IMG/VR virus record: IMGVR_UViG_2721755676_000001
Source of the DNA: a virus
Lineage: Duplodnaviria > Heunggongvirae > Uroviricota > Caudoviricetes
DNA length: 64,000 nt
Strand: one strand, 5' to 3'
In this document: positions 60,865 through 64,000 of the stretch, piece after piece
Layout: each line of letters begins with the position of its first letter
Numbering within the stretch: position 1 is the first letter of the stretch
The notes under the pieces: generated by a model
Told to the model about the DNA's origin: nothing
The model's database searches: none
What the model saw: the letters and a program-made list of their open reading frames with translations, nothing else
Program-made: the position numbers and the translations under genes

Positions 60865-60938
60865 GTTAATCGGTAGGTATATACTTACTGTTAGCGCAAT
60901 GAATGCGTAGAATTAACGGAAAAAGGAGTTTTCCATCA

Positions 60939-61685
60939 ATGTCTAATACCCATGTAAAAAACATCAAACTTGGTGCCTGTAAGGTGTCGTTTGGTGGTGT
61001 GGATTTGGGTTACACCAAAGGTGGTGTTCAGGTTGAAATCGCAACCGAAACGCTGAAAGTGACCGTAGACCAGCTGGGCCAGACCACGATCTCCGAGCTG
61101 ATCCAGGGCCGTAACATCACCATTACTGCGCCGCTGGCTGAATCCGTGTTGAAAAACATGGTCGATCTGATGCCAGGTTCCACGCTGAGTTCTGGCGAAG
61201 ATATCGTAACCATCACGTCTGCGCAGGGAGTGAACCTGATCGACGTTGCGAAAGAGTTGGTGCTGACCCCGCAGGATGCGACGGATTATGTTCTGACCAT
61301 CCCTAAAGCAGCAACCGCGGGTAACTTCACCATGACCTACCAGTCTGACGACGTTCGCGTGTTCTCAGTTGAGTTTTCCGCTTACCCGGACGACGCTGGC
61401 GTGTTGGGGAAAATGAGCCTCCCAAAGCCGGTTGAGAGCGTCACGCTGACCCCGTCTTCACCGACCGTAAAAGTGGGCACTAAAGTTCAATTGAGCGCAA
61501 CCTTCACCCCGGCCGATGCAACCAATAAGACTGGCGTGTGGAGCTCTGATGCGACTGATAAAGCGACCGTAGATCAGAACGGACTGGTAACTGGTAAAGC
61601 TGTCGGTTCAGCCAATATCACCTTCACAACTAATGACGGTGCCAAGAAGGCGACCAAAGCCGTCTCTGTAACTGCCGCAAGCTAA
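60939..61685 (+). CDS. Major tail protein candidate with C-terminal Ig-like domain
   Basis: RBS AAAAGGAG; C-terminal Big_2-like repeat VTLTPSSPTVKVGTKVQLSATF...; terminator GAGGCCCATGGATGGGCCTC follows. Confidence 0.6.
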   Translation: MSNTHVKNIKLGACKVSFGGVDLGYTKGGVQVEIATETLKVTVDQLGQTTISELIQGRNITITAPLAESVLKNMVDLMPGSTLSSGEDIVTITSAQGVNLIDVAKELVLTPQDATDYVLTIPKAATAGNFTMTYQSDDVRVFSVEFSAYPDDAGVLGKMSLPKPVESVTLTPSSPTVKVGTKVQLSATFTPADATNKTGVWSSDATDKATVDQNGLVTGKAVGSANITFTTNDGAKKATKAVSVTAAS

Positions 61686-61746
61686 ATTGTGATAACCCAA
61701 GAGGCCCATGGATGGGCCTCTGTATGAGTTTAAAAGGATTTAAACC

Positions 61747-62064
61747 ATGACCAAATTACTCGATCTCGACTCCATTCTGCCGCCGAAAAAAAGCATCAAA
61801 TTTGGTGGCAAAGAATATCCCATCGTTGAAATGACCGTCGGCCTCTTTGTTTCCATCAAGCAGATGGAAGGCAAAGATCTCATGAACATGACTCCTGTTG
61901 AGCAAGTGACAGCTTATGCAGATCTGGTTCGTAAGGTTATCCCTTCAGTACCTGACGAAGTTCTTGAAAAACTGACTGTTCCGCAACTCCAGCAGATCTT
62001 CACCTTCGCTATGGAAGTGATTGATGAAGAAAACGAAAAAGCGGCTGGCGAAGGGGCAAAGTAA
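61747..62064 (+). CDS. Tail assembly chaperone candidate (105 aa)
   Basis: Position between major tail and tape measure genes. Confidence 0.5.
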   Translation: MTKLLDLDSILPPKKSIKFGGKEYPIVEMTVGLFVSIKQMEGKDLMNMTPVEQVTAYADLVRKVIPSVPDEVLEKLTVPQLQQIFTFAMEVIDEENEKAAGEGAK

Positions 62065-62414
62065 TTTCCCGCGATGAATCCGGGACAAGGACCGTCTCAA
62101 TAGATCTCGGATTCTATTTCAGTCGTGTAGTTGCTCACTACGCCGTGTCGCCATTAGAGCTACTGAACGTTCCTCTCACGATGTTCTGGATGCTCAGTCG
62201 CAATATAGACCGTCTGCGTGCGGAAGAGGATGTCCGCAACTTACAAGTCGCTCGTGCGTCCCAGGCGGATGGCGAGGCTGTGAAGGCGTTCATGGAGGGT
62301 TTGCAACTCAGGATTGGAAGACCAGTCGTAACAGATAAAGTCTACGATCCAAGCCAGGATAAGGCAGACCCTGACGCCAAAGAGCAACTGATGCAAATAT
62401 TTGGCAGAGGATGA
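62028..62414 (+). CDS. Possible -1 frameshift extension of tail chaperone (lambda G/GT analogue)
   Basis: -1 frame open from 62028 and overlapping last codons of chaperone ORF near A-rich GAAAAAG. Confidence 0.35.
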   Translation, partial: RKRKSGWRRGKVISRDESGTRTVSIDLGFYFSRVVAHYAVSPLELLNVPLTMFWMLSRNIDRLRAEEDVRNLQVARASQADGEAVKAFMEGLQLRIGRPVVTDKVYDPSQDKADPDAKEQLMQIFGRG

Positions 62415-62421
62415 CAAGGGA

Positions 62422-64000
62422 ATGTCACAAAACGTAGAGTTTATCCTGTCGCTGGAAGACAAACAGTTTACAGCGTCAATCGATCGTGCGGGGAAACTGC
62501 TTACTCGATTTGGTGAGCAGGTAACAAAGCCTGCTCAAAAAATCCAAACCTTTGAACGCTCTTTGGGTTCGGTCGCCCGTATCATTGGCGTTCTGGAAAG
62601 CAAGCTCGATTCTACGGCAGATAAACTACAGGATGTAGCTGCCGGTTTTGAGCTTGCTTCAGATGCTACGCGTAAAATGCGTGGCAACATCACCAGCCTC
62701 AATTCTGGTCTTAAAGCCCTGATTGAGCGCGTCGATACGACAACTTCTTCAGTAGATAAACTCACCGCGTCATTACGTAAAGTGCAATCAGAGCTAAATG
62801 ATTTCTCTGATTGGGCGACCTATGCAAGCAAAAGCGCAAGCCGCTTTGGTACGGAGGTCAAAGAAGCCTCTGCGTCCGTGAGTGGCATGAATACGCGCCT
62901 TAATACCACGACGAAGCGACTCAGTAATTGGGGTGTCACAACGAGTCAGGCTGCCGAGGGACTGAAAAAGGTTCGTGAGCAGATGGACGAAGTTATCGGA
63001 CGTCAGCAACTGATTAGCAAGCCGGTACGCGTTCGTACATCTGGAAGTGGCGATGGTGGCAGCGGGCGGCGTAGCGGCTCTGGCCATAGCGATAAAAGTA
63101 ACGAAGGAGGTATGTTCTCTGGCCTTCGTGGCAACATTTTCCTGCTTGGCGAGATCGGAGATGCAGCCAGAACGGTTACTGACATCATGTTTGGGTGGCA
63201 GAAGCCTATTGTTGAAGCTGCGGCCGAAATGGAACGTATGCGGGTGATGCTTCGAGGGTTGAATAAGGAGAAGTCCAACCCGGGCCAGGCTGCCGCTGAT
63301 GATATGAAGTACATCGTAGACATGGCTCAAAATGCGCCGTTCGCGATGCAGGCGTTAACAGATTCCTTCGTGAAGTTTCGTTCTGCTGGCTTAGATCCAA
63401 CCGATGGCTCTCTGAAGGCGCTGGTGGACTCCGTTGCTCGTTTTGGTGGTGATAGTGAGCTGTTGAAACGTGCGGCTGTGGCCGTTCAGCAGATGTCCGG
63501 TAAGGGCGTCGTGTCAATGGAAGAGCTACGTCAGCAATTAGGTGAAGCCGTTCCTAACGCGATGCAGGCAATGGCAGACGCCGCAGGCATCACTATGGGG
63601 GAACTGACTAAAGCCGTTGCCAGCGGTACGGTTGAGGCAAAACAGGCGTTGTCTCTGATGTTTGTTGGTCTGCGTGCGGAGAATGAGAACGCAGCGAAAG
63701 ACATGATGCAAACCTACACAGGTGCGCTGGCGCAACTTCAGACGTCATTCACGTTATTTGCTGATCGGGTTGGTCAGGCCGGATATCTGGATTCTCTATC
63801 GAAGGGGATGAAAGAACTGGCTTCAATCATGAATAGCGCCGAAGGGATTTCGTTTGCCAATTCTTTAGGTTCGGGGTTAACAACGGCAATCGATGGGTTG
63901 CGTCAGCTTGCTCAATGGTTAGCAAAGAACCAAGAGCTGGTAATTAATCTCGGTAAGGTCGTGGCCGCGATGGTTGCGTTCAAACTGATGCGAGCATGGA
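62422..64000 (+). CDS. Tail tape measure protein, N-terminal part (continues past window end)
   Basis: Open frame from ATG 62422 to window end (about 526 codons); MSQNVEFILSLEDKQF...; coiled-coil-rich; not in track because no stop in window. Confidence 0.7.
   Translation, partial: MSQNVEFILSLEDKQFTASIDRAGKLLTRFGEQVTKPAQKIQTFERSLGSVARIIGVLESKLDSTADKLQDVAAGFELASDATRKMRGNITSLNSGLKALIERVDTTTSSVDKLTASLRKVQSELNDFSDWATYASKSASRFGTEVKEASASVSGMNTRLNTTTKRLSNWGVTTSQAAEGLKKVREQMDEVIGRQQLISKPVRVRTSGSGDGGSGRRSGSGHSDKSNEGGMFSGLRGNIFLLGEIGDAARTVTDIMFGWQKPIVEAAAEMERMRVMLRGLNKEKSNPGQAAADDMKYIVDMAQNAPFAMQALTDSFVKFRSAGLDPTDGSLKALVDSVARFGGDSELLKRAAVAVQQMSGKGVVSMEELRQQLGEAVPNAMQAMADAAGITMGELTKAVASGTVEAKQALSLMFVGLRAENENAAKDMMQTYTGALAQLQTSFTLFADRVGQAGYLDSLSKGMKELASIMNSAEGISFANSLGSGLTTAIDGLRQLAQWLAKNQELVINLGKVVAAMVAFKLMRAW

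Follow-up and report, generated by a model that had tools for sequence, protein, structure and literature searches.

The 64,000-nt stretch of viral DNA that we analyzed (Caudoviricetes, IMG/VR record IMGVR_UViG_2721755676_000001; hereafter the window) carries on its plus strand a row of tail genes, in which the gene of the major tail protein is followed by two overlapping open reading frames, here called G and T, and then by the tape-measure gene (Table 1). All relatives share this order with the window. The element is SSU5-like, with 92% identity of this region to the Escherichia phages CMS-2020a and Cyrano and 83% to Salmonella phage SSU5, and a 110-kb E. coli plasmid matches positions 61700-62450 at 100% identity. 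From this plasmid identity together with the similarity to the three phages, it follows that the locus is the tail module of an SSU5-like siphovirus phage-plasmid. The region is carried by 231 of 5,426 complete E. coli genomes, and it is plasmid-borne every time.

Table 1. Features of the G/T locus in the window.
Feature	Position	Strand	Basis
Major tail (tube) protein gene, C-terminal Big_2 Ig-like domain	60903..61685	+	Pfam Big_2 E=5e-23; PHROG Ig-domain and major tail protein families
G, putative tail assembly chaperone gene, 105 aa, zero frame, TAA stop 62062-62064	61747..62064	+	ORF; phrog_893; predicted fold
Putative A_AAG slip tetramer	62058..62061	+	In register; invariant in SSU5 clade and in L100, L102
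T segment, -1 frame, 117 codons and stop	62061..62414	+	Translation; phrog_1131; substitution pattern
Zero-frame stop TAA abutting the slip codon, possible pause element ("shifty stop")	62062..62064	+	TAA/TAG in every locus
Candidate stem-loop: lower stem 62070-62075/62122-62127, upper stem 62076-62086/62103-62114	62070..62127	+	MFE -16.9 kcal/mol
Tape-measure protein gene, 5' part (gene continues beyond the window)	62422..64000	+	Pfam TMP_3 (PF20155) E=4e-30; phrog_1292

Several observations were made around this module. A perfect 9-bp hairpin, AGAGGCCCA-TGGA-TGGGCCTCT (61700-61721, plus strand), sits in the 61-nt gap between the stop of the major tail protein and the start of G. The terminator scan did not call this hairpin, which lacks a T-run on its 3' side, and it may act as a partial terminator or stabilise the RNA, and so set the expression ratio of tube to chaperone. 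Gene calls split the tube protein from its Ig domain in some relatives (L094-L096), which could reflect another hidden frameshift or an assembly error. Upstream, the head-tail module holds a 306-aa ORF (57359-58279, plus strand) that, as read from its translation, apparently contains several tandem Big_2-like Ig repeats. At 5429-5515 (plus strand) a match at the Rfam gathering level to the group II catalytic intron RF00029 (64.9 bits, E=2e-10), the one Rfam hit of the whole window, suggests that a group II intron has inserted in the phage-plasmid. As to distribution, the G/T module occurs, with 96% identity in G, on a 108-kb contig of Yersinia pestis NCTC5923 (L088) and is also present in Kluyvera. 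It is found as well in MAGs labelled Bacillota and 'Candidatus Fimivivens', labels that are probably due to binning contamination by enterobacterial phage-plasmids; L087 and L091 are the further loci of this set.

G is preceded by AAGGA about 9 nt before its ATG and belongs to phrog_893, a family whose function is given as unknown in PHROG, as is that of phrog_1131, to which T belongs. We modelled its structure with AF2 from 61 sequences (pLDDT 84), in place of a mediocre model obtained from a 13-sequence alignment (pLDDT 75). In the model, four helices come after a beta-hairpin and lead into a disordered acidic tail. Its best Foldseek match in BFVD is an entry named 'Tail assembly chaperone' (E=4e-5, probability 1.0, TM 0.68), and many more entries named as tail assembly chaperones (TACs) stand among the best 50 matches. 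Against the PDB, neither of the two AF2 models of G gave a significant Foldseek match. Sequence searches with G and T, Pfam, NCBIfam and the PDB included, returned nothing meaningful, and no Pfam match links G to the family of lambda G; Phage_TAC_7 matches weakly in 2 of the 61 distant relatives of G. The resemblance between predicted structures, together with synteny, suggests that G is a tail assembly chaperone. Most TACs have been recognised by this same standard, that is by fold similarity, synteny and frameshift architecture.

In the -1 frame, a TGA at 62025-62027 is followed by a reading frame that stays open from 62028 to the TGA at 62412-62414. The T ORF thus overlaps the end of G by 34 nt plus the stop, or about 12 codons, as the original prediction had stated, and the two overlapping ORFs do lie between the major tail and tape-measure genes, the conserved G/GT position to which it had assigned them. 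We estimate that 128 stop-free codons would be met by chance in about 0.2% of cases, and an open -1 frame of this length is, taken alone, weak evidence. Its weight comes from its conservation across relatives and not from its length. All 84 related loci have their T ORF in the -1 frame, and in relatives the +1 frame runs into a stop within a few codons. In 30 of these 84 loci, including SSU5, the -1 frame opens just 10 nt before the stop of G, since a synonymous GGC>GGT change in G creates a -1-frame TGA (..GC TGG TGA AGG GGC AAA GTA..). The shift is therefore confined to the last 10 nt of G, whose 3' end reads ...GAA GGG GCA AAG TAA (62050-62064).

Within this minimal overlap (A GGG GCA AAG), the sole cognate re-pairing is that of tRNA-Lys, from AAG at 62059-62061 to AAA at 62058-62060; the codon read after such a slip is GTA (62061-62063). 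The sequence A AAG TA(A/G) is invariant in all loci of the SSU5 clade as well as in two relatives of 39-49% identity (L100 and L102), a conservation that is partly confounded by dual coding. G_GCA_AAG is not a tandem heptamer, as moving from GCA to GGC offers tRNA-Ala no cognate re-pairing. A slippery site in the correct register thus exists, as the original prediction required, and it is this conserved A_AAG and not the GAAAAAG stretch that had been put forward. Among Z_ZZN tetramers, A_AA.G is by a wide margin the most efficient in E. coli, where the IS3 pseudoknot raises it to 5.6% (PMC4066793). A single E. coli tRNA-Lys decodes both lysine codons, and A_AAG without P-site re-pairing is used by IS1222 and is present in B. 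subtilis cdd (PMC5009743).

The relatives of G give this site a wider context. A profile search retrieved 424 of them at E<=0.001, all 61 that were scanned belong to phrog_893, and many members of this family end in ...GK, ...GKK or ...GKE; viral-contig scans with P0043 and P0044 gave no match. At the slip position, the heptamer of lambda, G_GGA_AAG, is directly followed by TAA in L103 and L106-L117, and the same position reads G_GGA_AAG GAA TAA in L105, G_GGA_AAA GCG TAA in Pseudomonas phage hairong (L118) and G_GGG_AAG_TAA in L101 and L104. Wherever the DNA of distant phrog_893 relatives was retrieved, T lies in the -1 frame. The canonical heptamers of these distant relatives, taken together with their -1-frame T, indicate that the frameshift is a trait of the G family. 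By the same sequence comparison, the site of the SSU5 clade (N_GCA_AAG or N_GTA_AAG) appears to be a decayed heptamer of which the A-site tetramer alone has survived.

Could the shift occur elsewhere in the overlap, or be no ribosomal event at all? The A-rich run GAAAAAG (62035-62041), where the original prediction had located it, is read as GAA AAA GCG in the zero frame; this register holds no X_XXY_YYZ heptamer and is the wrong one for tandem slippage. A slip of tRNA-Lys alone on A_AAA (62037-62040) would find the -1 frame of the window already open from 62028, and A_AA.A shifts weakly but measurably in E. coli, with the lowest efficiency of the functional tetramers (PMC4066793). However, in the 30 loci mentioned above, SSU5 included, a ribosome that had shifted there would meet the TGA after 4 codons, so that the run is cut off from the T ORF. 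The run is moreover replaced by GAA GCC/GCA in L092-L099 (Photorhabdus, Raoultella and metagenomic contigs, 60-70% identity), despite a fully conserved T. We thus reject GAAAAAG as the programmed site and hold a shift by this route to be highly improbable, even if A_AAA may yield a minor by-product (...NEK-SGWRRGKVIS...) in the lineage of the window, where the -1 frame is open. One 139-aa protein in the databases, from an ENA contig of 111,509 bp (P0003), does read G through GAAAAAG into the -1 frame (..NEKSGWRRGKVISRDESG..), but it then leaves the frame again, and this second frame error led us to discard it as a natural fusion. It most likely stems from a homopolymer sequencing error or an assembly indel at the A5 run, gives no support to GAAAAAG, and could mislead searches for 'natural fusions'. 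Slippage of the RNA polymerase, rather than of the ribosome, on the A runs that do exist here (A5 at 62036-62040 and A3 at 62058-62060) seems to us barely conceivable. Productive transcriptional slippage is known for homopolymers of about 8-9 or more, far above the length of these runs, and the A5 run is neither conserved nor, in many relatives, free of the intervening TGA.

The other alternatives do without recoding and make T a protein of its own. All public phage records in GenBank and RefSeq E. coli plasmid records that we examined annotate two separate hypothetical proteins at G and T, with T starting at a GTG in the E. coli phages (62145 here, where a GTG is indeed present); for SSU5 and the Klebsiella phages, its start is placed at an ATG further downstream. 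However, translation of T from its own start, either GTG 62145 or ATG 62181, is in our opinion quite unlikely. The first possible start of T differs by lineage among the 84 loci (counted from the stop of G, GTG at +83, TTG at +113, and ATG at +119 or +26), and the Klebsiella lineage has GTA in place of GTG 62145. In the window, a Shine-Dalgarno-like sequence is absent before both GTG 62145 and ATG 62181, and neither a start codon of T nor a Shine-Dalgarno sequence is conserved among the relatives; in contrast, G has AAGGA and the tape-measure gene AAGGGA. A functional start and ribosome-binding site for T, which the original prediction had named as the finding that would speak against a frameshift, were thus not what we found.

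The 84 nt upstream of GTG 62145 argue in the same direction. The 28 T-frame codons that they form differ among relatives at 244, 122 and 539 sites for codon positions 1, 2 and 3, respectively, and the remainder of T follows the same pattern (1053, 639 and 2030). These codons encode KVISRDESG..SIDLGFYFSRVVAHY, which contains IDLGFYFSR. This is the best-conserved motif of T, it lies upstream of every possible start codon, and relatives whose G has diverged to about 25-30% identity still have it in the form IDFGFxFxR. T as a protein is conserved from KVISRDESG..SIDLGFYFSR onward, and its frame is open up to the slip site in all lineages. To judge from these substitutions, the stretch annotated as 'intergenic' evolves as a -1-frame coding sequence. 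A coupled mechanism, in which G would terminate at TAA 62062 and translation would re-initiate on a non-canonical codon such as ATT to yield T as a separate protein, would account for the coincidence between the stop of G and the onset of T coding, and an ATT does stand in the T frame at 62064-62066. We nevertheless find it very unlikely. The position of this ATT is occupied by ATT, ATA, GTT, ATC, GTA or ACA among relatives, with no start-like codon kept, and the slip motif, either A_AAG or a G_GGA_AAR heptamer, is conserved even where it stands one codon before the stop (L105 and L118). In lambda, T must be tethered to G (PMC5009743). None of the alternatives, be it an own start, re-initiation, transcriptional slippage or a shift at the A run, explains both the slip motif and the 10-nt overlap.

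The efficiency of A_AAG raises another question. In E. coli reporters, A_AA.G without a stimulator yields about 0.15%, barely above background (PMC4066793), whereas lambda requires about 1 GT per 30 G (PMC5009743). A stimulator is therefore expected. The adjacent stop codon is one candidate. All loci examined (about 12 independent lineages) have TAA or TAG here and never TGA, the codon that ends 20 of the 65 long ORFs in the window and that would, at the stop of G, keep a Val (GTG) in the T frame. This absence of TGA is only suggestive of a role for the stop codon.

Another candidate is a stem-loop that starts 8 nt after the slip codon. Across 11 relatives, 96% of its cells are paired and three pairs show a compensatory change, such as that from U-A to G-C in Photorhabdus; 4 of 500 shuffles reached the covariation score, which is modest support. 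Averaged over 12 lineages, z is -1.48 for the 70 nt past the stop and -0.47 for control windows of the same genes (Mann-Whitney p=0.006). Four distant relatives (L101, L103, L104 and L107) form a long hairpin at the same place from unrelated sequence. For the downstream structure that the original prediction asked for there is a candidate with conserved pairing, but in the window alone its z is just about -0.7 to -1.0, thermodynamically unremarkable, for which reason we keep this stem-loop as a candidate stimulator with modest support. RNAalifold found no structure on the codon alignment that includes the most distant relatives, in which the 5' arms of the distant ones are unaligned, and Rfam has no family in the G/T region. 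A smaller hairpin at 62067-62085 (UCCCG/CGGGA, -7.3 kcal/mol) was set aside, as it shares positions with the better-conserved long stem and, on inspection of the relatives, seems to be broken in L092/L093 and L096. No conserved Shine-Dalgarno-like element lies 10-14 nt upstream of A_AAG, and GAAGGGG (62050-62056) was discarded in this role, being too close for a -1 shift and not conserved (GAAGAAG or GACGACG in relatives).

We propose, with good confidence, that G and T form a chaperone pair expressed either as G alone or as a G-T fusion through a -1 slip at A_AAG on the last sense codon of G. Most ribosomes would terminate at TAA 62062 and release the 105-aa G. A small fraction would slip back by 1 nt as tRNA-Lys decodes the AAG, continue with GTA ATT TCC... 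and produce a fusion of 222 aa (...AAGEGAK-VISRDESG...), predicted as join(61747..62061,62061..62414). The programmed -1 TAC frameshift of the original prediction thus finds strong comparative support as regards the fusion of G to T, and its site must be moved. As A_AAG is not a canonical heptamer and gives so little on its own, its function would depend on the stimulators that we infer, and this minimal Z_ZZN tetramer is probably aided by the adjacent stop, by the stem-loop or by both. By analogy with gpG/gpGT of lambda, the G parts may coat the tape-measure protein and the T part may recruit the major tail protein. A more speculative hypothesis, which we consider possible rather than likely, is that the SSU5 clade has replaced the canonical G_GGA_AAG by the bare A_AAG and uses a -1 'shifty stop', with P-site slippage while the ribosome awaits the release factor. 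In that case, the kinetics of termination (about 12 lineages have UAA or UAG and none has UGA) would determine the G:GT ratio together with a co-evolving stem-loop, and tandem slippage would not.

That long-tailed phages have a G/GT frameshift is textbook knowledge, and its presence is hence expected here. In the literature that we searched on frameshifting or tail assembly in SSU5, we found no description of a G/GT frameshift for SSU5-like elements. What we describe is very probably an unannotated and slightly non-canonical TAC frameshift whose mechanism itself is known; slightly unusual are its degenerate site, the location of this site on the sense codon that ends G, and a stem-loop that may co-evolve with it. 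For annotation, this means that the records examined present G and T as unrelated hypothetical proteins and cut T at an arbitrary start, where the join given above would be the correct feature, and that the PHROG families 893 and 1131 could receive the functions TAC-G and TAC-T. Within the family one can also follow, in natural sequences, the decay of a canonical heptamer to a tetramer that abuts a stop codon. A frameshift predictor that looks for a heptamer 5' of the stop would probably overlook sites of this kind. The locus could also serve as a simple system to ask how far the loss of P-site re-pairing can be made up for by a stop codon and a modest stem-loop.

It remains to place this site among known systems. 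The gpG/gpGT pair of lambda, and with it the conserved TAC frameshift of long-tailed dsDNA phages, was reportedly described by Levin et al. in 1993 and by Xu, Hendrix and Duda in 2004. As in lambda, two overlapping ORFs lie between the major tail and tape-measure genes, the second one is in the -1 frame without a start of its own, the shift falls near the 3' end of G and the A-site AAG is decoded by a single tRNA-Lys. The G_GGA_AAG heptamer of lambda is even the one used by distant relatives of the SSU5-clade G. Unlike in lambda, the heptamer of the SSU5 clade has degenerated to N_GCA_AAG (GTA in some), so that the A-site tRNA alone re-pairs. The conserved TAC frameshift of long-tailed dsDNA phages is summarised in PMC5009743, and in curated TAC sets the distance from slip to stop averages 26-36 nt (PMC10885494), whereas here it is 0 nt, the slip being on the last sense codon.

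A closer likeness for the site itself comes from the tetramer -1 sites of IS1222 (G_CGA_AAG), B. subtilis cdd (A_CGA_AAG) and the IS1 and IS3 families (PMC5009743; PMC4066793). As in IS1222 and cdd, A_AAG stands behind a 5' codon that does not re-pair (GCA here, CGA there) and is read by tRNA-Lys(UUU), and for all these tetramers, as here, an efficiency at the percent level needs flanking stimulators. Our site differs from those of IS1222 and cdd by its context, a phage tail chaperone instead of a transposase or an incidental product, by the stop directly 3' of it, and by a putative stem-loop in place of a known pseudoknot or Shine-Dalgarno-like element.

A last comparison concerns the 'shifty stop' frameshifting said to have been described by Weiss et al. 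in 1987, of which prfB, with its +1 shift at CUU UGA, is the example. Like in prfB, a slip-prone codon lies immediately 5' of the stop, and slow termination could allow P-site re-pairing. Unlike in prfB, the shift is -1 and not +1, and no conserved Shine-Dalgarno-like element is found at the spacing of prfB, the GAAGGGG upstream being unconserved.
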